From the NCBI GenBank assembly GCA_964651325.1, contig CAZYXP010000001.1, positions 1 through 50,083 of the forward strand: 50,083 nt of DNA, written 5' to 3'. Below the pieces are notes generated by a model. That model was not told where the DNA came from and made no database searches. It worked only from the letters and a program-made list of their open reading frames with translations. Below are positions 16,431 to 36,394 of this stretch, in pieces. The DNA is from an uncultured Phycisphaeraceae bacterium (GTDB lineage: Bacteria > Planctomycetota > Phycisphaerae > UBA1845). A program made the translations under genes and the position numbers. Each line of letters starts with the position of its first letter. Position 1 is the first letter of the stretch.

Positions 16431-17596
16431 GCGATCGTATCCTTTGCGTTGACGACGATCAGAACATCCTGCAGGCCTACCAGCGCTCGCTGCGCAAACG
16501 ATTTCGGATCGAAACGGCCCTCGGCGGGCGCGAAGCCCTAGCCAAGCTTGATCCGAAGAACCCCTTCGCCGTGATCGTCTCCGACATGCGCATGCCGGAA
16601 ATGGACGGCGTCCAGTTCCTCGCGACCGTATCCCGCAATGCCCCGAGCACCGTGCGAATGATGCTGACGGGCAACGCCGATCAGCAAACGGCCATTGAGG
16701 CGGTCAACGAAGGAAACATCTTCCGGTTTCTGACCAAGCCGTGCAGCCCTGAAGATTTCGCGAAGGCGCTAACCGCGGGCATCGAACAATATCGCCTTGT
16801 TACGGCAGAAAAGGAACTGCTCGGGAAGACCCTGCGCGGCAGCATCAAGGTGCTCAATGACGTACTCGCCCTAAGCAATCCCACCGCCTTCGGACATGCC
16901 TCACGTGTTCGGGAACTGGTCGGCCGGTTATGCAAAGAGTTGAAGGTGGAGCGTACGTGGGAGTACGAGATCGCCGCCATGCTGTCGCAGATCGGCTGTG
17001 TCACGATTCCCCCCGATACCCTGGACAAGGTGTATCACCGCAAGAAGCTAGCGCCGGACGAAGCCGAAATGTTTGCTTCGCATCCTGAGATCGGGCGGGA
17101 ACTCGTTGCCAACATCCCCCGAATGGACGGAGTCGCCAAAATCATCGCCTACCAGCAGAAGGCGTTTGATGGCACCGGGTTCCCCGTGGACGATGTGGTT
17201 GGAACGAACATTCCTCAGGGCGCGCGCATCCTCAAGATCGCGCTGGATTTCGAAGCGGCCAAGTGGGGTGGGCTGGACGATCTCGACGCCGTGGCCGATC
17301 TGAACAGGCGCACCGAGGAGTACGACCCCCAAGTGTTTGCTGCATTCGAACGGGTCGTGGGCATTGGAGGCCAACTCGAGCGGAAGGGAATCACGGTAAG
17401 AGAACTCGCTGTCGGCATGTATCTAGGCGAGCATGTAAGAACGGCCGGTGGGGCGATCGTTGTGGCCAAAGGGCAGGAAGTCACACCGTCCCTGTGCGTC
17501 CGAGTCAAGAATTTCGCGCGGCGGAGCCGCATTCAAGAGCCGATCGCAGTATTCGTCCGTATCGAAAACCCCGTACCCACGTTGACAGGATCTTGA
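16427..17596 (+). CDS. Response regulator: REC plus degenerate (predicted inactive) HD-GYP-like domain
   Basis: ATG 16427 overlaps the upstream stop as ATGA. REC: ILCVDDD...VIVSDMRMPEMDG...FLTKPC. The HD-GYP scaffold is present but ligands are replaced: MLSQIG for LHDIG, AYQQKAFDGTGFP for HHHExxDGxGYP. Confidence 0.8.
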   Translation: MSDRILCVDDDQNILQAYQRSLRKRFRIETALGGREALAKLDPKNPFAVIVSDMRMPEMDGVQFLATVSRNAPSTVRMMLTGNADQQTAIEAVNEGNIFRFLTKPCSPEDFAKALTAGIEQYRLVTAEKELLGKTLRGSIKVLNDVLALSNPTAFGHASRVRELVGRLCKELKVERTWEYEIAAMLSQIGCVTIPPDTLDKVYHRKKLAPDEAEMFASHPEIGRELVANIPRMDGVAKIIAYQQKAFDGTGFPVDDVVGTNIPQGARILKIALDFEAAKWGGLDDLDAVADLNRRTEEYDPQVFAAFERVVGIGGQLERKGITVRELAVGMYLGEHVRTAGGAIVVAKGQEVTPSLCVRVKNFARRSRIQEPIAVFVRIENPVPTLTGS

Positions 17597-18356: not shown

Positions 18357-18902
18357 CTAGTTGATGGTGGCGCCGCCCTTAATGGCCTTGACGTTGCCGA
18401 GTCCAATGTCCACTACAACCGCGGTGGTTACGTTCATCCCAAAGTAGCCGTGAGACAGCACGGCCACCCATCCTGAAGCGCCCGCGGCCGGATCGGCGTC
18501 GGAAGGCGAGGCCTTCACATGGACCGTATCAAGATCGTTTACCGGATTGACAGGGAAGGGCGGTCGAAGGTAGGGGCCGTAGATGTAGGGGTAGCCATAC
18601 GTCGCGCTGGGATCGCCTTCGGCGTTGCTGTACATCATCAGTTGATTGACAAAGGCGGAATTGTCCGGAGTCGATGTGCCCGCAGCATAGCCGGGGTAGG
18701 CGCCGTGCTCGGCGTAGTAAGCGTCAATGGCTTTGCGCACGTTGGTCAGGGACGCCGCTAGGGCATGGCGCGAGGAATCCTGAGCGACATTGGAAAACCG
18801 AGGAGCGGCGATGGCCGCCAACACACCGATAATCGCAACGACCAAGACGAGCTCGACCAGCGAAAATGCGTTCGAGCGGGGCTGGCGATGGCATCGAGTC
18901 AT
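18357..18902 (-). CDS. Prepilin-type N-terminal cleavage/methylation protein, GspG/pseudopilin-like (copy 2)
   Basis: Internal ATG 18902 gives MTRCHRQPRSNA/FSLVELVLVVAIIGVLAAIAAPRF with Glu at +5. IYGPYLRPPFP is reminiscent of GspG. The upstream 62 codons of the listed ORF are rejected. Confidence 0.8.
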   Translation of the reverse strand: MTRCHRQPRSNAFSLVELVLVVAIIGVLAAIAAPRFSNVAQDSSRHALAASLTNVRKAIDAYYAEHGAYPGYAAGTSTPDNSAFVNQLMMYSNAEGDPSATYGYPYIYGPYLRPPFPVNPVNDLDTVHVKASPSDADPAAGASGWVAVLSHGYFGMNVTTAVVVDIGLGNVKAIKGGATIN

Positions 18903-19094
18903 CTTGTGGTCTTTCGCCGCAAGCTTGGTGGTCCAACGCAAGGGTCGCGTGCTCCCATGGATCACGCGATGGGCTCCTGTGGATATGTCTCGCGCAAGAA
19001 AGAAACCGCGAGACCACATCAAGCGATCGCGCGGCCTCAGATGTACACTACGTTTGTTGCGAGCAGCGCGGTGGCTGATCGTGTTCAAGTTGGC

Positions 19095-19595
19095 CTAGTA
19101 CCCGTTGTACAGCAAGCCGGCTTCGTCCTTTTCGAGCGCGCCACAGTTTGCGATGATTTCGCCCGTGTCTTTGCTGTAAACCCAGCCCTCGGTGCCCGTG
19201 CCACCCACCGGTGTACCTACGACGAGCTTGAGGTTGGCGTCCCCCTTGTTGGCACAGACCGGCAGCGCCGGTATGCCGCCGCGCAGGTAGGGGCCGTAAA
19301 TGTGAACGCCGGCCGTGGTGCCGACGGTGCCCCCGACATCTGTTTTCTTGATCAACTTGTCGATCACATCTGCCTGCAACGCCCCTGTCGGGAACACCCC
19401 CGCGTGTTCGGCCGAGTACATGTCGATGGCATTGCGCATGCCTGCGAGGCTGCCGCGAAGTGATGCGTCTCCGGCACCCTTGGCGCCGCGGCTGATACGC
19501 GGTACGGCAATCGCGGCAATCACGCCGATAATCACGACGACGATCACCAACTCCACAAGACTGAAGGCGTGTTTTCTATTCATCACGTTCGACAT
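19095..19595 (-). CDS. Prepilin-type N-terminal cleavage/methylation protein, GspG/pseudopilin-like (copy 1)
   Basis: ATG 19595 (AAGGA upstream; 19583 is an alternative) gives MSNVMNRKHA/FSLVELVIVVVIIGVIAAIAVPRI. Contains IYGPYLRGGIP. Confidence 0.8.
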   Translation of the reverse strand: MSNVMNRKHAFSLVELVIVVVIIGVIAAIAVPRISRGAKGAGDASLRGSLAGMRNAIDMYSAEHAGVFPTGALQADVIDKLIKKTDVGGTVGTTAGVHIYGPYLRGGIPALPVCANKGDANLKLVVGTPVGGTGTEGWVYSKDTGEIIANCGALEKDEAGLLYNGY

Positions 19596-19698
19596 TACCG
19601 TTGTCCTTTGCTCTTGGTTCGGGGTCAAGCCGCGGGCGATCGACGCCCATTGGTCGCGCATCTTCCACTACTGGTATCGTCTTCGAGCTGCCTTTGCT

Positions 19699-20262
19699 TT
19701 AGTTCTTCGACCCGCTTGCGTTGTAGGAAAAATGCAAGGTCGCCTTACCATCGAAACACTCAAATACGGCGTCTCTGTCCACAATGTCTGTAAGCCGGCA
19801 TCCGCGAAGAGACTCTCCAATACGAATCCACGTTCCGTCAATGATGACAAGTTGGATTTCTTTGTTTGAGATCATGCCCGCCAGACGAAAAAGGGCGGCG
19901 AACGTGGTCCGATCGAGTAAGCCCGTTTTGGAGGATTCCGATAATCGTGACGATGGCACGGCGTTCCCGCCCGAATCAATCCCGTTTGATGCCCGAAAGG
20001 GCGGGGGCACGAACACGTCGGCGCGCAGCGTCGCGGACGCGAATTTCTGGACTTCAAAAGGAAACGGTAGTGCCGGAATGACCGTTTCCGGGCCCTCATT
20101 TCTCACAAGATCTAAGGGCGAGGGTGCGGGCGGAGCGGTCAGAGCGCCTGCAGCTTGCTGGGGACCGCGGGCATCTCCGGAGAGGAAAAGTTGATCAACG
20201 CCAAACGCCAGGACGCAAAGCAGCAGGACGGCGACATAGGTTTTTTTTCTCGAAGTTCCCAT
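19699..20262 (-). CDS. Membrane-anchored PilP/GspC-like protein (tentative)
   Basis: N-terminal anchor KKTYVAVLLLCVLAFGV, a Pro-rich linker, and a C-terminal segment LAGMISNKEIQLVIIDGTWIRIGESLRGCRLTDIVDRDAVFECFDGKATL that resembles the PilP/GspC HR-domain pattern. It sits directly after pilO. Confidence 0.5.
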   Translation of the reverse strand: MGTSRKKTYVAVLLLCVLAFGVDQLFLSGDARGPQQAAGALTAPPAPSPLDLVRNEGPETVIPALPFPFEVQKFASATLRADVFVPPPFRASNGIDSGGNAVPSSRLSESSKTGLLDRTTFAALFRLAGMISNKEIQLVIIDGTWIRIGESLRGCRLTDIVDRDAVFECFDGKATLHFSYNASGSKN

Positions 20263-20267
20263 AGTCG

Positions 20268-20855
20268 TTAGTCTTTTTCCTTATCGACGATGGCGGGGAT
20301 ATGCGAGAAAAGGCTGAACGTGAGCCTTGCAGTGTGCTCTGCGGTTTGCCTCAGATCTGTGCCGGAATCGCTTTGAATACTCAGGTAGCTGATGTCTGCC
20401 CAATAAGGCGCCTGTTCGACGGCATACAGGAACGCGATCAGATTGGTCGCCCGCCCGCTGACACCGTAGGCACAGCGCTGCTCCAACAAACCCGGATACG
20501 AAACCGGGGAGAGCGGGTGCTGTTCCACGACTCGGATTTGGTTTTCGGACGCTAGGGTAGCAATCGCTTGCAGATACACTTCGACGGGTGTGGATTGGGG
20601 CAGCCCGGTGCGATCCAGGACTTCTTGAGTCGCCGCCATCTCAGTTCGCTGTCGCTGACATGCCGAGGTCAGCCGATGCACGTCTTGTGCGGACTGGTTG
20701 CTTTGCGCCTGAAGACCAGGAATCGTCTGGGAGGATCGTTGGGCCTGAGCCGTCGCCAGCGAGTAGACGGCAAACGAACACAATGAGACGACGGCGACGC
20801 CGACGAGATCAATGAGTAGTACACCTCTGCCAAATTGACCAGCACGCGTATGCAC
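20268..20855 (-). CDS. pilO: PilO-like pilus/secretion assembly protein
   Basis: GTG 20855 lies 3 nt after the pilN stop (AGGTGG upstream). It has a single N-terminal TM (VLLIDLVGVAVVSLCSFAVYSL), then a coiled-coil-like segment and an alpha/beta domain. Size and position match PilO. Confidence 0.6.
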   Translation of the reverse strand: MHTRAGQFGRGVLLIDLVGVAVVSLCSFAVYSLATAQAQRSSQTIPGLQAQSNQSAQDVHRLTSACQRQRTEMAATQEVLDRTGLPQSTPVEVYLQAIATLASENQIRVVEQHPLSPVSYPGLLEQRCAYGVSGRATNLIAFLYAVEQAPYWADISYLSIQSDSGTDLRQTAEHTARLTFSLFSHIPAIVDKEKD

Positions 20856-20858
20856 CGA

Positions 20859-21473
20859 TTACCACCTGCAGATAAGTTCAAAATGAAAGTATGAGCCATC
20901 CAAGACGGGCTCACGCCGCGATTCAACCAGCTTCACGTTCCGAAAAATCTGTTCCGCCTTCAGTGCCGCAACGTACGACGCAGGGTCGCCGGCGTTGGGC
21001 GCATACCCTTGGATGTTTAGGGCCGTTGGGGCATCGATCACAATTTCTTCGCTCTGATCAGCTTCTGCCAAAGCGATCGGCGCACTTCGGCGAACAGCGC
21101 CTCTGGGAGCATCCGGATCCGTGGCCACCTTGGTGAGCCACGATCCACGGGGCAGGTGAGACGCGATCAAGGCAACCATCCCCGACCAGGCACGCTTATC
21201 ATGCAACGCCACCGCTTGATCGGCTTGGGCACGCAGCAGCTTGGATGCCGTGGTGAGCTCGCGAAGTTCACTCCGGGCCTGCGAGAACGCGTCTTGAAGC
21301 TGAGCCTGCTTGGATTCCAGCTCGTCAGCGTGGACGCGGCTGACCCAGTCTGTGCCTGCCGCCAGCGCAAGCGCGGTGGCCGCTGCTGTCGCGGCCATCA
21401 TCCAGCGCGACAGGTGTTGCCGCCGAATCCGATCGATTCGGGCCTTTTCAGGCATAAGGTTCACGCGGATCAT
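20859..21473 (-). CDS. pilN: PilN-like assembly protein
   Basis: Starts MIRVNLMPEK, the PilN-type (I/V)NL(L/M)P motif, then a TM segment WMMAATAAATALALAAG. The ATG directly abuts the pilM stop (TAAATG). Confidence 0.75.
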   Translation of the reverse strand: MIRVNLMPEKARIDRIRRQHLSRWMMAATAAATALALAAGTDWVSRVHADELESKQAQLQDAFSQARSELRELTTASKLLRAQADQAVALHDKRAWSGMVALIASHLPRGSWLTKVATDPDAPRGAVRRSAPIALAEADQSEEIVIDAPTALNIQGYAPNAGDPASYVAALKAEQIFRNVKLVESRREPVLDGSYFHFELICRW

Positions 21474-22598
21474 TTATTCCTCCATCGCCAAGCCAATGGC
21501 TAGGGCGTAGACGCCAAGCGGGTTGGCCGCACCCCGCGGAACGGCGAGCCGGCAATCGGGGCGGTCCAGATACGCCGAGGCCGGGCGAACCGGGATACCC
21601 AGTTCGCTCGAGAGAAATTCCGGCAGGTTACCCAACGCCGCGCCGCCGCCGACCACCATCAGGTCGGCTGGCTTGCGTCCGGCGTAACAGCTCAGCGCGT
21701 ATTCGTAGGATCGTTTGATCTCCGCGGTTATGGGGATGAGTTCGCTTCGAAGAACGCCAAAAAGCATGGCGCCTATGCCATCGCGTTCGCCCGCCGGCCG
21801 CGCGCCGTCCGAGTGGTCGCGGGGCGGAAGAATGCCGTGGCTGCACTTATGCACCTCGGCCGCCTTGGTGCTGATGCCCAGGTTCTCCGCGATCTGTTGC
21901 GTCCAACGCTGCCCTCCTCCGCCGGCAGATCGCACGAGAATGGGGACCGATCCAAGGCAAAGTATCAATCTCGTCTGACGATGACCCACGTCGAGGATTC
22001 CCCAGATGGTGTCGTCATCAAAGCCGCGCAGCAGGTTGCCCAAGCGGCATAGGGCCGTAGCCGAGGTATCCACGGTAACGCAATCGACGCGGGCCGCTCG
22101 GCAAGCCTGCAAGAGGTCTTCGATCAGCTTGCTTCGTGTGGTACATCCGACCAGGTTCGGCGCGGACATCGTAGTCGGCGGAAGCCGCCAATGCGTCGCT
22201 TCATTAAACTGATCGGCGTGCGGAATCAAGCGTTGCATCTCTCCGCTCACAATGGCGGAAATAGGCTCCACCGATTGGTTCAGCAGTTTATCGGGCAGTT
22301 CGAGTGCGTGGAATTCCACGTCCGGGGGGCTTATGACCACGGACACCTTCTTGCCTTGAAACTCGGCGCGCGCTACGCATCCTTCGATCCTACGCCCCCA
22401 CACTTGAGCGATGCCGTGGTCCGTTGTTTCCGCGGCGTCCGCCGAAGCATGCGACTGAGCGTGATCTTCGATTCGGCTCGAATGGAACACACTCCATCGC
22501 TCGCCTCGGCGTTGAAGTTGCACAGCGCGCACTCCGGTGCGACCCACATCAAGGGCGATGAGGCTGCGTCGGGTTCGCGTCAGTGACGGTATCAGCAT
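21474..22598 (-). CDS. pilM: PilM-like actin-fold assembly ATPase
   Basis: IALDVGRTGVRAVQL, GILDVGHRQTRLILC...RSAGGGGQRWTQQIAENLGISTKAAEVHK and MVVGGGAALGNLPEFLSSELGIPV follow the PilM/FtsA-like pattern. Confidence 0.8.
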   Translation of the reverse strand: MLIPSLTRTRRSLIALDVGRTGVRAVQLQRRGERWSVFHSSRIEDHAQSHASADAAETTDHGIAQVWGRRIEGCVARAEFQGKKVSVVISPPDVEFHALELPDKLLNQSVEPISAIVSGEMQRLIPHADQFNEATHWRLPPTTMSAPNLVGCTTRSKLIEDLLQACRAARVDCVTVDTSATALCRLGNLLRGFDDDTIWGILDVGHRQTRLILCLGSVPILVRSAGGGGQRWTQQIAENLGISTKAAEVHKCSHGILPPRDHSDGARPAGERDGIGAMLFGVLRSELIPITAEIKRSYEYALSCYAGRKPADLMVVGGGAALGNLPEFLSSELGIPVRPASAYLDRPDCRLAVPRGAANPLGVYALAIGLAMEE

Positions 22599-22616
22599 CT
22601 CGTGTTCACCTGTCCG

Positions 22617-23834
22617 CTAGCGCATCGCCGCCGTCATGTCGAACAGCGGAAGAAAAAGCGAAATGGCGACGCCGCCGACGACGAAGCCCATCACGATCAA
22701 AATGGCCGGCTCCAACAAACGCATCGTTGTGTTGATCAGCTCGCTGTTGGTTTCGTCGAGGATGTCGGCGCAGTACGCCAGGGCTGAGCCAAGATTTCCG
22801 CTCTGCTCTCCGGTTCGCACGGCCTGACAGATATAGGGTTGGATCAATCCGGTCGCCTCGAAAGCGGAACTGGGTTCGCCGCCCGACGTGACCGCGTCTT
22901 CCAGCCGGTTAAACAGGTCTTGAAAACGGTTGTTGCTCGTTGCGTTGCGCGTGAGTTCCAGGGTCTCCAGGAAGCTGACTCGTGCGGCTAGCAGCGTGCC
23001 CATCGTCCGAAAGACCTGGCCTTGGATTAGCCGCGATCGAAGCTGGCCAAACACCGGAACAACGAGCTGCATGTTGCTTAGCCACTGGCGACCTCGATCG
23101 TTCAATACGATGGCGGCAACCCCTCCCGCCACCCCCGCGATCCCTCCCAGCAGAAACGGCCAATAACCTCGCAAGAATACGCCCAGATCGAGCAAGAGCC
23201 TCGTCGGCGTCGGCGTTTCCACACCAAGCTGCACAAACATCTGATTGAATCGCGGAAGAACGAAGAAAAGCAGAACCAAGAGAATCGTAGAGGCCATGGT
23301 GATCAGCAGCGCCGGATAGGTCAGGGCGCCGATGATCTTGTTGCGTATGGCGCGACGCTGCTGGACGATGCTCGACAGCCTCTCGAACATTTCCGCAATC
23401 GTGCCGCTGGCCTCGCCCGCCGCGATGATCGCGCAGAACACCGGATCGAACGATCGTGGAAACTGGCGGAGCGCCTCGGTCAGCGGGGTTCCTTCTTCGA
23501 GATCCGTCGTGAGTTTTTCGAGCACGTCCGCATGCTGCGGTTTGGTCATCTGTTTGCGAATCGAAGAAATTGCCGGGACAAGCGTGCTGCCCGAGTTCAT
23601 GAGCATTGCCATTTGGCGCGTAAACAGTGCCAATGTCTTGATAGGCAGCGCGACTTGGTGCAGCGTCTTTGCTTCCGTGACGCGCTTCGTTGATTCTTTC
23701 TTGGTCACTTCGATATCGGTGACAAACAGCCCCCGCCCGCGGAGCACCTCCCTGGCCTCCTGAACGTTGCCGGCTTCTATGGAATCCCGGGTTTTCTGCC
23801 CCGCTTGGTTGACGGCCCTGTAGGTAAGTATCAT
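22617..23834 (-). CDS. pilC: Type II secretion / type IV pilus platform protein (GspF/PilC family)
   Basis: 405 aa with a duplicated T2SS-F architecture and three hydrophobic blocks (ALTYPALLITMASTILLVLLFFVLPRF, ILIVMGFVVGGVAISLFLPLF). Its ATG overlaps the pilB stop as ATGA. Confidence 0.85.
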   Translation of the reverse strand: MILTYRAVNQAGQKTRDSIEAGNVQEAREVLRGRGLFVTDIEVTKKESTKRVTEAKTLHQVALPIKTLALFTRQMAMLMNSGSTLVPAISSIRKQMTKPQHADVLEKLTTDLEEGTPLTEALRQFPRSFDPVFCAIIAAGEASGTIAEMFERLSSIVQQRRAIRNKIIGALTYPALLITMASTILLVLLFFVLPRFNQMFVQLGVETPTPTRLLLDLGVFLRGYWPFLLGGIAGVAGGVAAIVLNDRGRQWLSNMQLVVPVFGQLRSRLIQGQVFRTMGTLLAARVSFLETLELTRNATSNNRFQDLFNRLEDAVTSGGEPSSAFEATGLIQPYICQAVRTGEQSGNLGSALAYCADILDETNSELINTTMRLLEPAILIVMGFVVGGVAISLFLPLFDMTAAMR

Positions 23835-25621
23835 GCGCTCACCTCCGCTCCTCGACCGGTGGGATCACCCACTTCCAATGATTCCGATCGCGTGACGCGC
23901 AAGACCTCCTCCAGCGTCGAATCGCCGTGCTCCACGAGGTCGAGCGCTTTTTCACGCAGCGTGCGCCATCCGATTTGCGCCAGGTATTCACGTATTTGGC
24001 CTTCGGACACATCCTGCTGGATCATCCGTTTTAGCTCGGCGTCCAGGAGCATCACTTCGTAGATCCCGATCCGCCCCTTGAATCCTGTGTTCGCGCACTG
24101 CCGGCAGCCTTCGCCTTTTTGGAACAGCTCATTGGTGCGATGCCCCCAGCCGACACGTTCCAGCAAGGCAGGCGGCGGGTAGTACGACGCCTTGCACGAC
24201 GAGCAAATCTTGCGGGCCAGCCGCTGGGCCACAAACCCCAGCACCGATGAGGCGATCAAGAACGGTTCAATGCCCATGTCCGCCAGCCGCATCACGCCTC
24301 CCGGGCAATCGTTGGTGTGAAGCGTGGCGAGCACCAGATGGCCCGTAAGTGCCGCTTGAATGGCAACGCGCGCCGTTTCCTCGTCGCGAATCTCACCGAC
24401 CATGATGACATCAGGGTCTTGACGCAAAATGGAACGCAACGCGCGAACGAACGAAAGCCCCACCGATTCGTTGACCTGAATCTGGTTGATCAGCGGCAGT
24501 TGGTATTCGACGGGATCTTCGATCGTGACAATGTTGGTCGATTCATTGCGCAGAAGATCCAACGCGGAATAGAGCGTCGTGGTCTTGCCACTGCCGGTCG
24601 GCCCTGTGACGAGCATCAGCCCGTAGGGACTGGTGACCATGGCCTCTATGGCGACTCGATCCTGGCCGCGCACGCCGAGATCGCTCAGCTCGAAGCTGAT
24701 GTTGGATCGGTCGAGAATGCGCAGCACGATCTTTTCACCGAGCACGGTGGGCATGGAGGAGACGCGCAGGTCGATCTCACGTCCATCGGCCACGATGTGA
24801 ACGCGCCCTTCTTGCGGCAGGCGCTTTTCCGCGATATCCATTCGTCCGATGACCTTGACACGCGATACGATCGCCGCGTGCATGCCCTTGGGCGGCTTGA
24901 GCATCTCCCGCAAACGGCCGTCGATCCGATAGCGAATGTGTGTCGCGTCGCGGTCGGGCTCGATGTGGATGTCGCTGGCGCCCTCGCGAAGCGCCGTCAA
25001 GATTGCCAAATTCACCAGATTGACGATCGGGCTGCCCTCGATCATTTGATCGAGGTCGGTAACCGGCCCTTCATCGATTGCCTCAACCTCGGAGATTTGA
25101 ATGTCGCTCTCTTCCATCGATGCGAGGAAGGAGTCGACATTGACTTCCTTGGCCAGGTACTTGTTTTGGAATTCCTCGAGGTTTTCTTCCAAGACCAAGA
25201 CGGGGCGAATGCTACACCCGGTCAAGCCTGCCAGCCGATCTTGCAGGGGCAGCGACTTGGGTTCGACCATCGCGACGGTCAGGTCGTCGCGAACGCGAAA
25301 CAGCGGGAGCACGCGCATGCGCTGCGCTTCCTCCTTCGGGATCAGCTTGGCCACCTTCGGATCGATCAATCCATGTCGCAGCAAACAGCCCTTGACGCTT
25401 AGCCGTGTGGACAGCGCCTGCACGAGCGCCGTTGAGGAAAGAGCGCCGATGTCGACCAGAGATCGGCCGATACGCACGCCGGTCGTCGATTGCCGCGCAA
25501 GCCCCTCGGCCAGTTGCTCGGGCGTGATGACGCCGTCGCGGACGAGCTGATCCCCCAACCGAACCGCACTTTCAATGGTTAGCTTTGCCAATGGCTCGTC
25601 TCTTGGAATCGTTCGCGCCAC
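23831..25621 (-). CDS. pilB: GspE/PilB-family secretion ATPase with an N-terminal MshEN-type c-di-GMP-binding domain
   Basis: GTG 25621. Walker A VTGPTGSGKTTT; Asp/His boxes (IMVGEIRDEETA, TGHLVLATLHTN); tetracysteine CSSC...CRQC. N-terminus RLGDQLVRDGVITPEQLAEGLARQ-STTGV-RIGRSLVDIGALSSTALVQALSTR. Confidence 0.9.
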   Translation of the reverse strand: MARTIPRDEPLAKLTIESAVRLGDQLVRDGVITPEQLAEGLARQSTTGVRIGRSLVDIGALSSTALVQALSTRLSVKGCLLRHGLIDPKVAKLIPKEEAQRMRVLPLFRVRDDLTVAMVEPKSLPLQDRLAGLTGCSIRPVLVLEENLEEFQNKYLAKEVNVDSFLASMEESDIQISEVEAIDEGPVTDLDQMIEGSPIVNLVNLAILTALREGASDIHIEPDRDATHIRYRIDGRLREMLKPPKGMHAAIVSRVKVIGRMDIAEKRLPQEGRVHIVADGREIDLRVSSMPTVLGEKIVLRILDRSNISFELSDLGVRGQDRVAIEAMVTSPYGLMLVTGPTGSGKTTTLYSALDLLRNESTNIVTIEDPVEYQLPLINQIQVNESVGLSFVRALRSILRQDPDVIMVGEIRDEETARVAIQAALTGHLVLATLHTNDCPGGVMRLADMGIEPFLIASSVLGFVAQRLARKICSSCKASYYPPPALLERVGWGHRTNELFQKGEGCRQCANTGFKGRIGIYEVMLLDAELKRMIQQDVSEGQIREYLAQIGWRTLREKALDLVEHGDSTLEEVLRVTRSESLEVGDPTGRGAEVSA

Positions 25622-25626
25622 ATGCT

Positions 25627-25640
25627 ACGCAACGTTGCGT
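25627..25640. promoter_or_regulatory. 14-bp perfect palindrome ACGCAACGTTGCGT in the 35-nt STAS-pilB gap, 6 nt upstream of the pilB start
   Basis: Read directly. The function (operator or small RNA hairpin) is inferred only. Confidence 0.35.
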
Positions 25641-25656
25641 CTGGGTCTTGCGGCAG

Positions 25657-25992
25657 TTACATGAAACTCTTAGCGGCGTCGCGCACATCTTCGAAAAATC
25701 GAAAACGCCGCGACAGACCCGTTAGTTCCAAAATTTCTCTACAAGTGGGTGATACCTTGGCCAACTTCAGGCCAGCGGCGCGGCTTGCCAGTTCGTCCGC
25801 AGCCGACAGCAGGCCTTCAAGCGCGGCGCTGTCCATGTAGGGTACGTCCGCCAACGACACAACGATTCTCGGCGTCGGGCAGTCGATCAACTGGGCGAGT
25901 TCCTCGCAAAACGCCTCCGCGTCGTCGTCTACTAAGGCGCCCGTGGGCGACAGAACATGCACCGTGCCAATCGCCTGATGGTCGAGTTTCAT
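25657..25992 (-). CDS. STAS-domain protein (SpoIIAA-like anti-sigma-factor antagonist family)
   Basis: ATG 25992 overlaps the upstream gene's TGA (ATGA). MKLDHQAIGTVHVLSPTGALV...VVSLADVPYMDSAALEGLL...LKLAKVSPTCREILELTGL fits the STAS pattern and includes a DS(A) phospho-site position. Confidence 0.8.
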   Translation of the reverse strand: MKLDHQAIGTVHVLSPTGALVDDDAEAFCEELAQLIDCPTPRIVVSLADVPYMDSAALEGLLSAADELASRAAGLKLAKVSPTCREILELTGLSRRFRFFEDVRDAAKSFM

Positions 25993-27332
25993 GTCGAAGC
26001 TCCCGCGGCCGCCACGTCTTTGGCCAGATCGCTGGCCAAGGCGCACTGGCTCACACGCGCGCGATGACACTGCCCTAGCGCGCCGCTGAGCAGGCCTCTG
26101 AGGTCGGGCGTGTCCACGCCGCTTCCCACCAAACCGCAACGAACCTGCACCGCTATGCCCCATCGACTTTCGTCGCCGCAAACCCGCTCCACGCGCTCCA
26201 ACAACTGACGCACGATCAATCCCGCCAGATCCGAATCGACCCGCCTCAATAGGATCACGAAGCGTTCGCCGTCAAAACGACCGATGCGATCATCCATGCG
26301 GACTTTGCGCCGAAGCTCGTGGGCGCACGCACGCACGATTTCCTCGGCGATTTCCCATTGGCCGACGTCCGATAAACGGCGCAAGCCTTCCAGCGCGAAC
26401 ACCGCGACGGCCACGGGTTCGCCGTCTGAATAGGATTCCTTAAGGGCTTGTTCGGCATCGACCAGAAAGGCCCGCCGGACGCTGAGCCCCGAAACGGGAT
26501 CATCCAGCGTGGCCGCCCGGTTGTCGCACGAATCTTGCAGCATGCACCAGCACTGCGACGCGATCACCTCCATGCACGCCAGCAGATCGCGACACACCTG
26601 GGGCGGCGAATCCAACTGCCCGACCGTCACGATGCCCAGTCTCCGATTGCCTCTCTTGATCGGAAAACACCATTGAATCCGGCCGGCATCGTTCTGATCG
26701 AGCTGATCGAGAAACTGGTGTTCAATCGAATCCCCGGAAACGTAGGCGCGTCCCGTCGTGGCCACGTATCCGACAATGCCCAACCGCGCCGACAATTCAG
26801 CATCGTCGGACCAGGAATCCGAGGCCTGCAGCGGCACCAGATGGTTCATCTCCGGCACCAGCCGATAGGGGCGAACATGGGTGGCCCCGCAGCCAGTGTG
26901 GAGCATCGACCTGAGCCATTCGTCAAAGCCCGGCCAGGGGTCCGCTTGGTGGCCGTTTTGCCCAAGCCATTCATTGAATTGCTTGATGGCGGTGGTGATG
27001 ACGGGAAGCGATGGGTCGGGGTGGGCGACGCTCGCTGGCGCCGGGGTGGCGGAATCCAGTGTGGTCTGCCCCATCGGTGCGGGTCCGATCCGTTCCACCG
27101 TCTCACCGGCCCACCCCGCTACGGTGACGATGGCTAGGGCGCCGGCCAGGCACATGGTCGTGGCCAGCGAATCGGTCCAGAGGCCCACGTTGGGTGAGGC
27201 TTGGGCAAACGCAACCCAAAAGCTCGCGCAGATCAGCCCCAGGGCGAATCCGCGCCCGTGGCCCAACAAACGGCCACCGAGGCCGGCGCCGAGCAGGATG
27301 GGGAACCATGGAAGAAGTAACATCATTGACAT
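25989..27332 (-). CDS. Membrane protein with a GAF domain and a degenerate GGDEF domain (DGERF) that keeps an RxxD I-site
   Basis: About 3 N-terminal hydrophobic helices. GAF-like LGIVGYVATTGRAYVSGD. GGDEF fold DPVSGLSVRRAF...RMDDRIGRFDGERFVILL (26259-26300); codons checked base by base. Confidence 0.85.
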   Translation of the reverse strand: MSMMLLLPWFPILLGAGLGGRLLGHGRGFALGLICASFWVAFAQASPNVGLWTDSLATTMCLAGALAIVTVAGWAGETVERIGPAPMGQTTLDSATPAPASVAHPDPSLPVITTAIKQFNEWLGQNGHQADPWPGFDEWLRSMLHTGCGATHVRPYRLVPEMNHLVPLQASDSWSDDAELSARLGIVGYVATTGRAYVSGDSIEHQFLDQLDQNDAGRIQWCFPIKRGNRRLGIVTVGQLDSPPQVCRDLLACMEVIASQCWCMLQDSCDNRAATLDDPVSGLSVRRAFLVDAEQALKESYSDGEPVAVAVFALEGLRRLSDVGQWEIAEEIVRACAHELRRKVRMDDRIGRFDGERFVILLRRVDSDLAGLIVRQLLERVERVCGDESRWGIAVQVRCGLVGSGVDTPDLRGLLSGALGQCHRARVSQCALASDLAKDVAAAGAST

Positions 27333-27336
27333 GGCA

Positions 27337-28638
27337 TCATTCCGTATCGACTAGAGCCGAATCCTCCCAAACATGGGTAAACGTATTCGCTTGGTCGAGC
27401 AGACGCTCCCAGGTTATCGATCCTTCCGTCAGCGTCGCGCGGATCATGCGATCGAATGTCTTCTGCAAGTTCGGATCGAGCGTTGTGCCTGATTCATCAC
27501 TCATAATCGCCAGCGCCTTGGTCCAGTCGAATGCCTTGCGATAGGTTCTTGTGGAGGTCAGTGCATCGAACACGTCGGCGATCTGGATGACGCGGGCCTG
27601 CAAGGGAATCGCCTCACCCTTCAATCCTTCCGGGTACCCCTTGCCATCGTAATGCTCATGGTGATGGAGCACGCCGTCCAGCGCGTCGGCAAGGTGGGGA
27701 ACCCCCTGGACGACGTCATAGCTGCGTACCGGGTGTTCCTTCATGTGCTCAAATTCTTCCGGGGTGAGCGCTCCGTCTTTCTTCAAGACATCGTCTCGGA
27801 TGCCGATCTTGCCCACGTCGTGCAGCAGAGCGCTCCATTGGAGCATGCGATGATCGCGCCCCGTCAGCCCGATCTCGGTTGCCAGCATGGTCGCGAAATA
27901 GGCGACCCGGGTGGAGTGGCCTGCGGTGTACTTGTCCTTTTGATCCACGGCATTGACCAGCGATCGCACCATGGACACCGACATGGTTCGAAGTTCACTG
28001 AGGAGCCGGCAGTTGCGGATCAGGTCGCCGCAAAAATTCGATAGCGATTCAACCACCGACATGTCACTCGCCCGCAGCTCGCGCGATTCCTCCGGTCGAG
28101 CGATTACGATCGCGCCTACGACGACGTCGCCCGCGATCATCGGCGAAACGAGGAGCTCCACCAGATCCGATCCCGCGCCGTCAATTCGGCGGACCACGGC
28201 GCGATGCTCGTCGCACAGTTCCCGAATCATTTCCCCGATTCCCGGTACCCCCTGGATCGGTTGCCCGACCAACACACAGGCGCGGCGACCCGCCCCGGAA
28301 TAGATCCCGACGTCGTAGCAGGCGAGGCTTCTTGCAAGGTTCTCATGCAGCACGCTTAGCACGGCGTACTCATCCTTGAGATTCGGCAGCGCCTTGGTGA
28401 CGCTGAAAACGATCCCGAGTTGTTCGTACACCGTGAACAGTTCATCCGCCAGCCCGTCTTGCTCGACGCGCAGCGCACCCAATCCTCGCTCAACCCCATC
28501 GAGGTGCTCAAGCAGTTGAGGTTGTGTATCTCCATGCGCGATGCCGTCACGCAGGCGCGACAGGCTCCGTTGCAGCAGCGGATGCAAAGGCAACGCCTGA
28601 TCGGGTAGTCCGGTGGGATGGTTTGAGGTTGCGGTCAT
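27337..28638 (-). CDS. GAF-like domain plus canonical HD-GYP c-di-GMP phosphodiesterase
   Basis: GHSTRVAYFA...ALLHDVGKIG...HHHEHYDGKGYPEGL...QIADVFDALTSTRTYRKA. Start chosen at ATG 28638; TTG 28665, which overlaps the REC gene by 20 nt, is an alternative. Confidence 0.85.
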   Translation of the reverse strand: MTATSNHPTGLPDQALPLHPLLQRSLSRLRDGIAHGDTQPQLLEHLDGVERGLGALRVEQDGLADELFTVYEQLGIVFSVTKALPNLKDEYAVLSVLHENLARSLACYDVGIYSGAGRRACVLVGQPIQGVPGIGEMIRELCDEHRAVVRRIDGAGSDLVELLVSPMIAGDVVVGAIVIARPEESRELRASDMSVVESLSNFCGDLIRNCRLLSELRTMSVSMVRSLVNAVDQKDKYTAGHSTRVAYFATMLATEIGLTGRDHRMLQWSALLHDVGKIGIRDDVLKKDGALTPEEFEHMKEHPVRSYDVVQGVPHLADALDGVLHHHEHYDGKGYPEGLKGEAIPLQARVIQIADVFDALTSTRTYRKAFDWTKALAIMSDESGTTLDPNLQKTFDRMIRATLTEGSITWERLLDQANTFTHVWEDSALVDTE

Positions 28639-28645
28639 TGAATTC

Positions 28646-29017
28646 TTAACCCGCGGCTGTGGCAAAAAGCCGTTCGATTTCGGCTACAAGCTGAGAGGGA
28701 ACAAACGGTTTGGGAAACAACTGCGCGTTCAGCGAAGCGATGGAATCCACGATGTCTTGCTGGTCGCACCGTGAACTCAAGAGTATGTATGGAATCTCCG
28801 CATCGACGTCCGCCCGTACATGGCGAAGCAGTTCGATGCCGTTCATCACGGGCATGTTGATGTCGGAGATGATCATATCGACCGTCTGCGTGCGTAAGAT
28901 TTCTCGCGCGTCAGCCCCGTTTGCGGCCTGAAGCACTGCGTATCCGTGGCGCGTGATCCAGAGGGAAGTGACCTTCAGGATGTGGGCGTCATCTTCGACC
29001 AGAAGAATGCTACTCAT
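28646..29017 (-). CDS. Single-domain response regulator (REC only)
   Basis: ILLVEDDAHIL...MIISDINMPVMNG...LFPKPF. Its ATG overlaps the kinase stop by 8 nt (ATGAGTAG), with GGAAGGAAG upstream. Confidence 0.9.
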   Translation of the reverse strand: MSSILLVEDDAHILKVTSLWITRHGYAVLQAANGADAREILRTQTVDMIISDINMPVMNGIELLRHVRADVDAEIPYILLSSRCDQQDIVDSIASLNAQLFPKPFVPSQLVAEIERLFATAAG

Positions 29018-31130
29018 CTCGATCTTCCTTCCCTGTCCCCGCCAAACTGGTTTCTCTTGTCGTCTGGTGAGGAAGTTTCAACATGAAAGTCGATCCTTCG
29101 CCCTTGGCGCTGAGCAACTCGATGTCGCCCCCGTGGCGCCGTGCGATGGCCCGAGCGGTATACAAGCCGATGCCGGTTCCGGTTTCCGTCTGGACCTCGT
29201 CGTCCTGCGCACGGTAGAATTTCTCAAAAACGCGGGACTGATCCTCCGCATCAATCCCGACCCCGTTGTCCTTCACGGTGACCACCACGCCGTCGGTGTT
29301 GACCTGGCATCCCACCACAACGTTGCCATCGGCCGGCGTGTACTTGATGGCATTACCGAGCAGGTTGTTGACGACCACGGCCAGCTTGTCCCGATCGGCC
29401 TGGATCGCTTCGAGCTTCGACGGCAAGAGCAGTTGCAGGTCGATGTTCTTCTCGTCGGCCAGACCCCGCACGTCGCGCACCGCGTCGGACATCAAGCCGC
29501 CCAGATCAACCTGATCCAGTTTCAAGTCGATGCCGCCGACCTCGAGCTGCGAAACGCTGAGCACATCTTCGATCAGCCGCGAGAGTCGTCGTGTCTCCTT
29601 GTTGATCACGTTGTAGCATTCTGTAATCACCTTGGGATCATCAAACATCCCGGAAGAGAGCGTCTCTGAATACGCCCGGATGTTGGTCAGCGGCGTTCTC
29701 AGTTCGTGCGTGACCTGTCCGATCAACTCCTCCCGAGCCTTTTCCGCGCGGGTCTGCTGAGAGATGTCTCGTATGAGGACCAACGCCTCGCCGTGGTGCT
29801 GTTTCCGTTGCAGCGGGATGATCCACGTCCTGAAAATATCCGGTTCTTCTTCGTCGTCTTGATCCATTTGAATCAATTCGTTGTGTTGCTGGTAGGTGCC
29901 TTCCGGCTGCAACGAAGAACGGAGCACCTTCACGACCTTCTCTCCGACCCCATTGGCCACGGTTTTGTGGATGCTGTTCTGCTTGACCTCTTCCCATGAC
30001 CAGCCGAACAGGCGACAGGTCGTCGCGTTTGCGTATTCGATCCGCTCTTCTTCCGTGATGAAGAGAATGCCGTCGGGAAGTGCGTTGAGCACTTCTGCAA
30101 GTTCGCCGCCGCTACTGGTGGACAACAGCCGACAAAGCTCGCGGTCGGCTTCAGCGCGTTCCGTATTCTCGACCGCGCTCCGCGCCAGCTCGACAAGCTG
30201 ATTCCAGGATTCGGTCGTAGTGTCCGATTCGTCCTCGATGCGTAACGCCGTCAAGTCTTCCTCGATTCGATCGCATTCGGCGCGAAGGCGACTGGCAATT
30301 CGCGATGCCGAGCGCAATTGCTCGCGAAGACAACGGTACACAACAAAAAGCGCTCCGAGCACAATGAAGACCACGACCAACAAGCCGGCTTTGCCCGAAG
30401 CTGTATGGGCCGTCGAAGCTGTCGATAGGACCAACTCGACCAGAATATCGGACGGGGGGGGATGCCCCGGCGATGTGGGCGTCGCATCGCCGTTGGCCAT
30501 CGATGCTGGCGATTCAGACGCTTGAACCACGCTCGCTTGTTCCCCAGCCGCGGAGTTTGGCTCGTGCGGCTCCGGCAAAGCACCGATGCCCGTTTGACCG
30601 TCCTCGCCAGGATCATCAGTCGCGCCGCGAGCGTTCGGCCCGCTGCGGTTCACGCGAATCCGGGCACGATACCGACGCGAAGTGCCGCCCGGGATTCGCT
30701 CCCGCGCAATTGCGGATCGAGCCTCGTTGCCGGCAAGGTTCGGAAATGCGGATGGTTCGACCCGAGTGCCACGAGTCGAAGAGGGTTGCGATGATTGTAC
30801 GAGCCCATCTGAATCGAATATCCTCCACGATTCCACTTGGAAATGTTGCGAAAAATCGTGGAGCGCAATTCTCGTGGCCACACCTCGCCCTTGCTCATTC
30901 TTGCCTTTACCCGGAGTCGTCTCGATTTCTCGGACCATCGAAGAGAAGGCGTAGTCCGCCGATTTTTCGAACCGTTCGGTCGATTCGTCGCGTGCTCGAG
31001 AGACCGCAAACCGGGAGATGGCCCCAAGCCCGACCAGGTAAATCAGCACGATTGAAAGCCCGAACCACCTCGGAACTTCTTCCGCGGTTAGAAACGCACT
31101 GATTTTTCGTCGCGCAGATATCACAGGCAA
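29010..31130 (-). CDS. PhoR-like membrane sensor histidine kinase (2 TM, periplasmic loop, PAS, HisKA, HATPase)
   Basis: TTG 31130 (GTG 31124 is an alternative). TM segments WFGLSIVLIYLVGLGAI and LLVVVFIVLGALFVVY. PAS LPDGILFITEEERIEYANATTCRLFGW. H-box VTHELRTPLTNIRAYSETL. ATP-binding blocks NLLGNAIKYT, DNGVGI, GTGIGL. Confidence 0.9.
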   Translation of the reverse strand: MPVISARRKISAFLTAEEVPRWFGLSIVLIYLVGLGAISRFAVSRARDESTERFEKSADYAFSSMVREIETTPGKGKNEQGRGVATRIALHDFSQHFQVESWRIFDSDGLVQSSQPSSTRGTRVEPSAFPNLAGNEARSAIARERIPGGTSRRYRARIRVNRSGPNARGATDDPGEDGQTGIGALPEPHEPNSAAGEQASVVQASESPASMANGDATPTSPGHPPPSDILVELVLSTASTAHTASGKAGLLVVVFIVLGALFVVYRCLREQLRSASRIASRLRAECDRIEEDLTALRIEDESDTTTESWNQLVELARSAVENTERAEADRELCRLLSTSSGGELAEVLNALPDGILFITEEERIEYANATTCRLFGWSWEEVKQNSIHKTVANGVGEKVVKVLRSSLQPEGTYQQHNELIQMDQDDEEEPDIFRTWIIPLQRKQHHGEALVLIRDISQQTRAEKAREELIGQVTHELRTPLTNIRAYSETLSSGMFDDPKVITECYNVINKETRRLSRLIEDVLSVSQLEVGGIDLKLDQVDLGGLMSDAVRDVRGLADEKNIDLQLLLPSKLEAIQADRDKLAVVVNNLLGNAIKYTPADGNVVVGCQVNTDGVVVTVKDNGVGIDAEDQSRVFEKFYRAQDDEVQTETGTGIGLYTARAIARRHGGDIELLSAKGEGSTFMLKLPHQTTRETSLAGTGKEDRDE

Positions 31131-34877: not shown

Positions 34878-35133
34878 TGACGTTCGTCCTCCGTATCCAA
34901 CCCTAGATCCAGCCCGGACCGGTGCCGGCGCACAGCTCCCGCTCCTATAAGATATAGACACCGCCCGATCCAATCCGGCGGGGCCGATTCGCAATTATTT
35001 GTTAACGATTTCGAAATGAAACCGGCACGACCCGGTCAAACTACGCAAATTGGCCCCTAACGGCTAGCGAGACGCTTCCGATCGCCGAGCCAATGCTTCG
35101 CGCAACGTATAAGACATCGCTGAATCGAGCGGA

Positions 35134-36237: not shown

Positions 36238-36394
36238 GCAATGCTTCTCCTTATAATCAAACCAATCCGCGACCATCACTAGTGAAGGGCAAGTCTTGAA
36301 CATGCGTAGCCAACCATGGTACTGTGCCAATAGCCTTTTTGGCAACAATAAAGTGCAGGAAATAGCGTTCGACGATTTGTGCGATCGCAAAAGA

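Follow-up and report, generated by a model that had tools for sequence, protein, structure and literature searches.

A predicted c-di-GMP-binding MshEN module on a GspE/PilB-family motor ATPase in a conserved Phycisphaerae operon

Organization of the operon and its motor ATPase

The window analysed here, a 50,083-nucleotide stretch of DNA from an uncultured Phycisphaeraceae bacterium, contains an operon in which genes for signalling proteins precede the gene for an assembly ATPase and the genes of a putative type IV pilus-like machine. The features are listed below in the order of their coordinates.

18357-23834, minus strand: downstream machine genes, the whole block including two small unassigned genes
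18357-19661, minus strand: two prepilin-type proteins (Pfam N_methyl)
20859-21473, minus strand: PilN (Pfam PilN)
21474-22598, minus strand: PilM (Pfam PilM_2)
22617-23834, minus strand: PilC-like platform protein (Pfam T2SSF)
23831-25591, minus strand: GspE/PilB-family assembly ATPase gene (Pfam, NCBIfam and PDB sequence matches; start from orthologues)
23897-25036, minus strand: T2SSE ATPase core, N2D and C-terminal domain (Pfam PF00437, residues 196-575)
25145-25372, minus strand: MshEN C-terminal (alpha/beta) subdomain (Pfam PF05157, residues 84-159 in GTG numbering, 4.1e-11)
25403-25474, minus strand: MshEN motif II, RIGRSLVDIGALSSTALVQALSTR, a variant with I at position 2, A at position 11 and R at position 24
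25475-25489, minus strand: spacer STTGV, 5 residues, alpha2-alpha3 turn
25490-25561, minus strand: MshEN motif I, RLGDQLVRDGVITPEQLAEGLARQ, which agrees strictly with the published 24-residue consensus
25657-25992, minus strand: STAS-domain protein, directly upstream of the ATPase gene (Pfam STAS, 2.1e-15)
25989-27332, minus strand: GGDEF-domain protein (Pfam GGDEF, 5.3e-10, partial; weak GAF match, hydrophobic N-terminus)
27337-28665, minus strand: HD-GYP phosphodiesterase (Pfam HD_5, 3.9e-40; HD...HHHEHYDGKGYP residues intact)
28646-29017, minus strand: single-domain receiver at the operon head (Pfam)
29010-31130, minus strand: PAS histidine kinase at the operon head (Pfam)

The gene order, from the histidine kinase and the receiver through the HD-GYP, degenerate GGDEF and STAS genes to PilB, PilC, PilM and onwards, recurs unchanged in three further genomes of Phycisphaerae, all of which contain a 111-aa STAS gene at the equivalent position. 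The genes for PilC, PilM, PilN and the pilin-type proteins (T2SSF, PilM_2, PilN and N_methyl) are located directly 3' of the ATPase gene, and no secretin or PilT was identified in the window ORFs that the Pfam scan covered. The HD-GYP and GGDEF genes upstream had been taken by the initial annotation as context for c-di-GMP control of the motor. This context stands for the HD-GYP protein, the only one of the two that looks catalytically intact, but not for the GGDEF protein, in which the active site is degenerate (DGERF) and only the RxxD site is retained (RMDD). Three orthologues of the GGDEF protein are likewise degenerate (DDSRF, DGSRF or DESRI), and by these signatures the protein is not an evident cyclase.

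The ATPase covers the full Pfam T2SSE model (8.7e-135), and its closest PDB sequences are those of Geobacter PilB (6olj/5tsg, E about 1e-142). The translation contains the Walker A motif GPTGSGKT, DPDVIMVGEIRD and GHLVLATLHTN, along with the tetracysteine zinc site CxxC...CxxC in the form CSSC...CRQC, and judged from this the gene is intact. The scores against the NCBIfam models for PilB (TIGR02538, 582 bits) and GspE (TIGR02533, 568.9 bits) are both under the equivalog cut-offs of 675.65 and 630.25, respectively, and the protein is better described as belonging to the GspE/PilB family of ATPases in a T4P-like system than as a certified orthologue of T4aP PilB.

The tandem MshEN motif and its conservation

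The translation of 23831-25621 (minus strand) reads ...AV-RLGDQLVRDGVITPEQLAEGLARQ-STTGV-RIGRSLVDIGALSSTALVQALSTR-LSV..., in which positions 25403-25561 encode a 53-residue tandem of motif I, the 5-residue spacer and motif II. The MshEN consensus is RLGxx(L/V/I)(L/V/I)xxG(L/V/I)(L/V/I)xxxxLxxxLxxQ, in two copies placed 5 residues apart (Wang et al. 2016, PMC5013675). The initial annotation had given this consensus verbatim and claimed a strict match, and motif I does indeed agree with it at all specified positions. Its reading of the first three codons as R, L and G (25553-25561) was also correct; the codons are CGG-TTG-GGG (25561-25553), and the 53 residues run exactly from 25561 to 25403. 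The second, partial copy that it placed after the STTGV spacer is there as well. [quoted passage not shown] The terminal Gln is present in motif I, while motif II contains an Arg instead. Across all six frames of the whole window, the strict motif matches once, the relaxed motif twice and the tandem once, in each case here at 25403-25561, as compared to 0 strict, 0.09 relaxed and 0 tandem matches per shuffle in codon shuffles (n=200).

The longest ORF of the ATPase gene starts with a GTG at 25621 and encodes 596 aa. Translation most likely begins at the TTG at 25591, which gives a protein of 586 aa with the motif starting at residue 11, because a Met is placed 10 residues ahead of RLG in 110 of 116 orthologues, a position that corresponds to this TTG in the window, and because there are in-frame stops just 5' of the orthologous ATG in two of the three loci read. 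In TTG numbering, motif I most likely extends over R11...Q34 and motif II over R40...R63. The residue numbers 21-44 (R21, Q44) originally given for the first motif were counted from the GTG at 25621 and are probably 10 too high, corresponding to R11 and Q34, while the motif itself is as described.

The motif residues are invariant or almost invariant across 114 orthologues of at least 78% identity. Motif I is strictly kept in 109 of these and the Gly at spacer position 4 in all 114. The variant form of motif II is found clade-wide, with I at position 2 in 104 and A at position 11 in 113 of the 114 proteins, and its last residue is R in 103, K in nine and Q in two. An N-terminal extension ahead of RLG, M-x-x-L-T-I-E-x-A-V, is also conserved in the orthologues.

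Comparison with binding and non-binding domains

The Pfam model PF05157, named "MshEN", spans only the C-terminal subdomain and does not cover the motif itself; it was rejected as a motif test for this reason. The NCBIfam model NF053729 "c-di-GMP_motif" (NF053729.1, curated cut-off 38 bits) matches over model positions 1-52 of 53, with 53.5 bits for the full protein and 57.2 bits for the N-domain. Alignment to an HMM had been proposed as a check, and the result is positive for domain membership but does not tell binders from non-binders, since the GSPII-A domain of Thermus thermophilus PilF, a proven non-binder, also passes with 52.8 bits. Proven binders score 59.8-84.1 bits, and the N-domain falls in between. 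The model was rejected as a binding test on these grounds and indicates domain membership only.

The proposed alignment to Vibrio cholerae MshE (5HTL) is gap-free against its residues 8-120 (113 residues, 62 bits, E 4e-16), with an identity of only 32-33%. The residues R9, L10, G11, D12, G18, L25, L29 and Q32 of VcMshE correspond to R11, L12, G13, D14, G20, L27, L31 and Q34 (TTG numbering), and R38, G40, G47, L54 and L58 to R40, G42, G49, L56 and L60. The two proteins share two 24-residue motifs, a 5-residue spacer, an alpha/beta subdomain and a GspE-type ATPase, and conservation extends to every key residue that is hydrophobic, Gly or Arg (PMC5013675). However, motif II has I (I41) for L39, A for F48 and R for Q61, and the acidic residue of the C-terminal subdomain is Glu (E110, or E120 in GTG numbering) rather than Asp108. 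All functionally important residues of VcMshEN are kept or conservatively replaced, save the terminal Gln of motif II. The machines also differ, with a Planctomycete PilBCMNO/pseudopilin operon in this case and the MSHA locus in V. cholerae.

The best alignment of the N-domain, again gap-free, is to Myxococcus xanthus PilB (70 bits, E 1e-18). The M. xanthus and C. thermophilum PilB proteins likewise have one N-terminal MshEN domain on a full-length PilB (PMC6957770; PMC11656802), and they are reported c-di-GMP binders (PMC6957770; Dye et al. 2023, as described in the review PMC11656802). The motif II variants RIG and GA(I/L) are shared with M. xanthus PilB, but motif II of both PilB proteins ends in Gln and both are from canonical T4aP loci, whereas the protein studied here has the Arg and is under the TIGR02538 cut-off. 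The GSPII domains of PilF have the same fold, although there are three in tandem rather than one, and c-di-GMP is bound via the MshEN motif in GSPII-B and GSPII-C (PMC11731258, PMC12002112).

The AF2 model of the N-domain (pLDDT 88, pTM 0.76; pLDDT above 90 in the C-terminal subdomain) predicts helices at residues 2-18, 24-37, 41-47 and 53-64, and then an alpha/beta subdomain; the alpha1-alpha2 and alpha3-alpha4 turns contain the conserved Gly residues. The structure comparison suggested at the outset turned out in favour of the binders: in a Foldseek search with this model, the top match is 5HTL with c-di-GMP (E 1.7e-12), PilF GSPII-B is also among the top matches, and the non-binders GSPII-A, X. 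citri PilB-N and XpsE-N rank lower than these two.

These matches identify the segment as a genuine MshEN_N module carried by a motor ATPase of the PilB/GspE type. The sequence, the domain membership, the predicted fold, the clade-wide conservation and the conserved synteny are established here. Its homology with V. cholerae MshE, M. xanthus and C. thermophilum PilB, and T. thermophilus PilF GSPII-B and GSPII-C leads us to predict, at a probability of roughly 0.8, that the N-domain binds c-di-GMP, most likely one per protomer.

The initial annotation had gone further and predicted high-affinity control. The c-di-GMP KD of MshEN-containing PilB proteins ranges from nM to low-uM (PMC5013675; PMC6957770; review PMC11656802), and the motif-terminal Gln hydrogen-bonds to ribose and phosphate in MshEN_N (Wang 2016, PMC5013675). 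High affinity cannot be inferred here because motif II ends in Arg, as it does in the non-binder GSPII-A (PMC12002112), and because the Q61A mutation lowers the affinity of VcMshEN 11.8-fold (Wang 2016 Suppl. Table 1, PMC5013675). The same Arg is the first of several features suggesting that the N-domain may be a non-binding domain of the GSPII-A kind that acts only as an N1 docking domain for PilM and other stator or platform proteins, a reading that we consider quite unlikely. The Arg could still reach the phosphate, and R or K is found at this position in 14 of 95 diverse tandem MshEN domains (about 15%) and is permitted by the relaxed motif. The conserved L-T-I-E extension, which is predicted to be helical, is similar to the L4-T5-I6 segment of GSPII-A, where this segment caps helix alpha1, makes it longer and helps to block binding (PMC11731258, PMC12002112), and this is a point against binding. 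The AF2 model likewise starts alpha1 at residue 2, albeit with low confidence (pLDDT 63). However, only 16 of 116 orthologues contain the ideal N-cap box h-[STD]-x-x-[EQD], for which reason a GSPII-A-type block of the pocket by such a box was rejected as a conserved feature.

GSPII-A is not only accepted by the NCBIfam model but is also preferred in phmmer searches with the N-domain (38.7 bits) over GSPII-C (28.3 bits) and GSPII-B (26.4 bits). Nevertheless, the binders VcMshE and M. xanthus PilB are far closer to the N-domain than any PilF domain, and binders rank first among the structural neighbours. The presence of the motif alone is not proof of binding, because binding is still not restored in full-length GSPII-A when it is given a perfect consensus (PMC12002112). 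However, five of the six key positions that are lost in GSPII-A are kept here, namely the Q at position 24 of motif I, the R and G at positions 1 and 3 of motif II, and both Leu residues, and the strict clade-wide conservation of all ligand-contacting residues is hard to explain without a ligand. It is very improbable that the physiological ligand is instead another cyclic dinucleotide, such as 3'3'-cGAMP, with the clade-fixed Q-to-R change in motif II retuning specificity, as weak cGAMP binding by VcMshEN (reported in Wang 2016, PMC5013675) might suggest, since the readers of the guanine Hoogsteen edge are retained (G-D at positions 3-4 of motif I and Gly at position 3 of motif II), the operon encodes c-di-GMP-type HD-GYP and GGDEF (RxxD) proteins and no CD-NTase according to the Pfam scan, and direct evidence for such a ligand was not found.

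Proposed mechanism and occurrence of MshEN-bearing motors

The product of 23831-25591 (minus strand) would serve a type IV pilus-like machine as its motor ATPase of the extension type (PilB/GspE family). [quoted passage not shown] With c-di-GMP as the predicted ligand, each guanine would be placed in a hydrophobic Leu cluster, in which it would stack against the Arg that opens one of the motifs, and the phosphate/ribose contacts would come from the final Gln of motif I and from the Arg that replaces Gln in motif II. By its occupancy, the bundle would tie pilus assembly to c-di-GMP in the cell or in a local pool, and it is probably the kinase, receiver and HD-GYP genes of the same transcript that determine the level; possible accessory sensors or adaptors are the STAS protein and the degenerate GGDEF protein with its RxxD site. 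Everything on ligand binding is inferred, as are its affinity and the direction in which it would affect the motor. A point against this reading is that the ATPase rates of MshE, CtPilB and PilB2 are scarcely altered by c-di-GMP in vitro (PMC6957770; PMC11656802).

A precedent for an MshEN receptor under a genetically linked, locally acting c-di-GMP enzyme is the Escherichia coli NfrB MshEN domain with the local cyclase DgcJ (PMC8669469), and the NfrB model NF008411 aligns to the N-domain. The output of NfrB is a glycosyltransferase rather than a motor ATPase, however, and its linked enzyme is an active cyclase, whereas the enzymes linked here are an HD-GYP phosphodiesterase and a degenerate GGDEF protein.

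PilB motors with MshEN domains are well documented and very common, Planctomycetes included, and the principle itself is an established one. ATPases of the GspE/PilB type that carry MshEN were described from many bacterial lineages in over 10,000 proteins, and the supplement of that study contains the Planctomycetes Rhodopirellula baltica (RB12774) and Isosphaera pallida (Wang 2016, PMC5013675). The N-domain analysed here matched 10,676 representative clusters, and a literature search combining Planctomycetes, type IV pili, c-di-GMP and PilB returned nothing specific. Mildly useful new points are the clade-fixed Arg in place of the terminal Gln of motif II, the failure of a curated HMM to separate binders from a proven non-binder, and the placement of the motor in a conserved operon with HD-GYP, degenerate GGDEF and STAS proteins.

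This conserved operon, which joins c-di-GMP signalling genes to the motor, is a more interesting feature than the MshEN module. It may even encode a one-operon local c-di-GMP circuit hard-wired to the pilus motor, in which the Gln-to-Arg change in motif II would tune the affinity to the local pool and the inactive GGDEF and STAS proteins would serve as c-di-GMP-dependent adaptors touching the motor, although we regard this as rather doubtful. If true, pilus assembly would be under a local signalling module that is driven by a phosphodiesterase and lacks a cyclase, a kind of which we know of none described so far. Surface appendages and second-messenger signalling are, to our knowledge, almost unstudied in this uncultured Phycisphaerae lineage, for which the result is useful as an annotation of a predicted c-di-GMP-responsive pilus or pseudopilus motor.

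Tandem MshEN motifs in a GspE/PilB-family motor ATPase

The open reading frame at 23831-25621 (-) translates into a 596-residue protein containing ...ESAV-RLGDQLVRDGVITPEQLAEGLARQ-STTGV-RIGRSLVDIGALSSTALVQALSTR-LSVKG..., and the 53-residue stretch with the two c-di-GMP-binding motifs (motif I and motif II) spans exactly positions 25403-25561, where the initial annotation had placed it, with the R-L-G codons CGG-TTG-GGG read at 25561-25553, likewise as claimed. The motif that it gave, RLGxx(L/V/I)(L/V/I)xxG(L/V/I)(L/V/I)xxxxLxxxLxxQ, is the version printed in Wang et al. 2016 (PMC5013675), according to which the 53-residue domain consists of two such motifs and a 5-residue spacer. Motif I agrees at all specified positions, as had been stated, and motif II, described as a partial copy, departs at three positions (I replaces L at position 2, A stands at position 11 and R replaces Q at position 24) and satisfies the relaxed database-search motif of Wang et al. 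(PMC5013675). Across the six reading frames of the entire 50-kb window, the strict motif had a single occurrence, the relaxed motif two and the tandem one, and every one of these lies at 25403-25561; the corresponding numbers per codon shuffle (n=200) were 0, 0.09 and 0. The MshEN tandem is real, and chance is ruled out.

The residue count of the initial annotation began at the GTG at 25621. The recorded gene call has 586 residues and the N-terminus MAKLTIESAVRLG. Since a methionine is located 10 residues ahead of RLG in 110 of 116 orthologs, and in-frame stops occur 3-9 codons 5' of that ATG in two of three orthologous loci, the start codon is most likely the TTG at 25591. In this numbering, motif I corresponds to R11-Q34 and motif II to R40-R63, and the mutants suggested earlier therefore become R11A and Q34A. 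A 14-bp palindrome, ACGCAACGTTGCGT, is located at 25627-25640 between the stop codon of the STAS gene and pilB; it lies about 36 nt upstream of the TTG start and does not abut the start codon, contrary to the assumption based on GTG.

The T2SSE ATPase domain is full-length (Pfam, 8.7e-135), and the protein looks like an active motor because it carries Walker A, the Asp and His boxes and a CxxC...CxxC zinc site. It scored 582 bits against type IV-A PilB and 569 bits against T2SS GspE in NCBIfam, each below its own equivalog cut-off, and among proteins of solved structure it is closest to PilB of Geobacter and M. xanthus and to PilF of T. thermophilus. The names of the homologs place it among MAGs from Phycisphaerae/Planctomycetota, and more than 100 orthologs are at least 78% identical to it. 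The Pfam “MshEN” model PF05157 covers residues 84-159 only, which is the C-terminal subdomain, with the motif outside. The 53-position model NF053729.1 (“c-di-GMP_motif”) matched residues 21-72 in GTG numbering (53.5 bits, cut-off 38), and the alignment includes model positions 1-52 and excludes the final position, a Gln.

Comparison with known c-di-GMP binders

The N-terminal domain can be aligned gap-free with both V. cholerae MshE (VcMshE, residues 8-120; E 4e-16) and M. xanthus PilB (E 1e-18), the latter of which has been reported to bind c-di-GMP via its MshEN domain (review PMC11656802).

Ligand-contacting or structural residues of VcMshE (Wang et al.) and their counterparts in the ATPase, TTG numbering
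R9, L10, G11, D12: R11, L12, G13, D14
G18: G20
L25, L29: L27, L31
Q32: Q34
R38: R40
L39: I41
G40: G42
G47: G49
L54, L58: L56, L60
Q61: R63
D108: E110

All ligand-contacting positions are invariant or near-invariant in 114 orthologs. Motif II of M. xanthus PilB shares RIG and GAI with the ATPase, and thus the I and A deviations have a precedent in a protein with reported binding; of the three changes, the terminal Gln-to-Arg is the one that M. xanthus PilB, with Gln at the end of its motif II, does not share. In the clade of the ATPase this Arg is fixed, the last residue of motif II being R in 103, K in 9 and Q in 2 of the 114 orthologs. Among 95 tandem domains in the best 150 representatives of a library-wide search it is Q in 61, R in 11, K in 3 and H in 6, and a terminal Arg is not unusual outside the clade.

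The AlphaFold2 model of residues 1-155 (20 orthologs in the input; mean pLDDT 88, pTM 0.76) contains helices at 2-18, 24-37, 41-47 and 53-64, followed by an alpha/beta subdomain, and the conserved glycines are placed in the inter-helix turns. In a Foldseek search against PDB the top hit was 5HTL, V. cholerae MshE in complex with c-di-GMP (E 1.7e-12), followed by c-di-GMP-bound structures of GSPII-B, one of the three tandem N-domains of PilF. The non-binders PilF GSPII-A (9G1W), the X. citri PilB N-domain and XpsE-N had lower ranks. With binders at the top, the domain is not placed in a non-binding T2SSE_N subclass, a possibility raised by the initial annotation.

NF053729 scores of N-domain sequences from known binders, one non-binder and the ATPase (cut-off 38)
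VcMshE, binds c-di-GMP: 84.1 bits
PilF GSPII-B, binds: 60.9 bits
PilF GSPII-C, binds: 59.8 bits
M. xanthus PilB, binds: 59.8 bits
ATPase N-domain, binding predicted: 57.2 bits
PilF GSPII-A, does not bind: 52.8 bits

In this calibration the non-binder GSPII-A passes the cut-off, so NF053729 shows domain membership, not binding, and the NF053729.1 annotation over-predicts c-di-GMP binding. The ATPase is far nearer in sequence to MshE and M. xanthus PilB than to any PilF domain, and of the six positions lost in GSPII-A it retains five. GSPII-A likewise has Arg as the last residue of motif II. With the full consensus restored, intact GSPII-A still showed no c-di-GMP binding, because of an N-terminally extended helix alpha1, which an L4-T5-I6-G-D-K N-cap stabilizes, and inter-subdomain contacts (PMC12002112). 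The segment ahead of RLG in the clade of the ATPase resembles the L4-T5-I6 start of this domain. It has the conserved pattern M-x-x-L-T-I-E-x-A-V (25562-25591 (-); L in 100, T in 82, I in 106 and E/D in 111 of 116 orthologs) and is helical in the AlphaFold2 model, at low confidence, and a canonical capping box was found in just 16 of the 116 orthologs. Candidate roles for the segment are helix extension, pocket gating or partner contact.

On balance, we put the probability that the ATPase binds c-di-GMP at roughly 80%. Of the high-affinity control predicted initially, the binding is thus likely, but the high affinity cannot be inferred with a motif II that ends in Arg, as the Q61A substitution in the N-terminal domain of VcMshE lowered the affinity 11.8-fold (Wang 2016 Suppl. 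Table 1). The MshEN observation is confirmed, and its interpretation is partly supported.

Operon context and distribution

The co-directional block at 18357-31130 (-) encodes a PAS histidine kinase, a receiver, an HD-GYP protein, a GGDEF-domain protein, a STAS protein and the ATPase, followed by pilus-type genes: PilC, PilM, PilN, two small genes without assignment and two prepilin-type proteins, in this order. The gene order from the kinase through PilN and onwards is kept in three other Phycisphaerae genomes (L001-L003), in which PilB is 78-81% identical. Of the window ORFs that were compared with Pfam, none encodes a secretin or PilT, and neither gene was seen in the operon. The HD-GYP protein retains HD...HHHEHYDGKGYP.

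Active sites of the GGDEF-domain proteins
25989-27332 (-) in the window, upstream of pilB: DGERF instead of GG(D/E)EF
Three orthologs, at 8217-9551 in L001, 8171-9523 in L002 and 8297-9628 in L003: DDSRF, DGSRF and DESRI among them

An RxxD site five residues upstream of the degenerate site is kept in all four proteins, and the GGDEF-domain protein probably acts as a receptor or adaptor for c-di-GMP rather than as a cyclase. The products of the operon include a likely phosphodiesterase and a pseudo-cyclase that likely binds c-di-GMP, but no evident cyclase. The support previously drawn from the upstream HD-GYP and GGDEF genes is half right, in that the HD-GYP residues are kept but the GGDEF site is degenerate.

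Further signalling genes of c-di-GMP or HD type are located on the opposite strand beside the operon, at 16409-17596 (+) and 15210-16430 (+): REC-HD_5 (HD-GYP-like), REC-HDOD and a stand-alone REC. Ahead of them, at 12335-15244, a large histidine kinase with multiple PAS domains and a Tll0287-like sensor is encoded. Two large paralogous proteins (about 420 aa) with prepilin-type N-methylation motifs are encoded at 33726-34994 and 35134-36390 (-), a feature typical of Planctomycete DUF1559-like proteins and in agreement with the taxonomic placement.

By homology, the four-helix bundle would hold one c-di-GMP per protomer, and the products of the kinase, receiver and HD-GYP genes may plausibly set the ligand level locally. 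Binding of c-di-GMP to MshE promotes MSHA pilus extension in V. cholerae (PMC11656802), and in PilB of C. thermophilum, c-di-GMP and ADP influence each other allosterically and the ATPase activity is restrained by the N-domain (PMC6957770). For the motor studied here, local setting of the ligand level is an inference, as is the direction in which c-di-GMP would act.

In the library-wide search, the N-domain had matches in 10,676 representative clusters (E <=1e-3). More than 10,000 MshEN proteins from many bacterial lineages were reported by Wang et al., whose supplement includes the Planctomycetes Rhodopirellula baltica (RB12774) and Isosphaera pallida (PMC5013675), and “MshEN+-type” is a recognized category of PilB (PMC6957770). 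The ATPase is an ordinary addition to this well-known class, and the conserved sensory-cassette operon is of greater interest than the MshEN motif.
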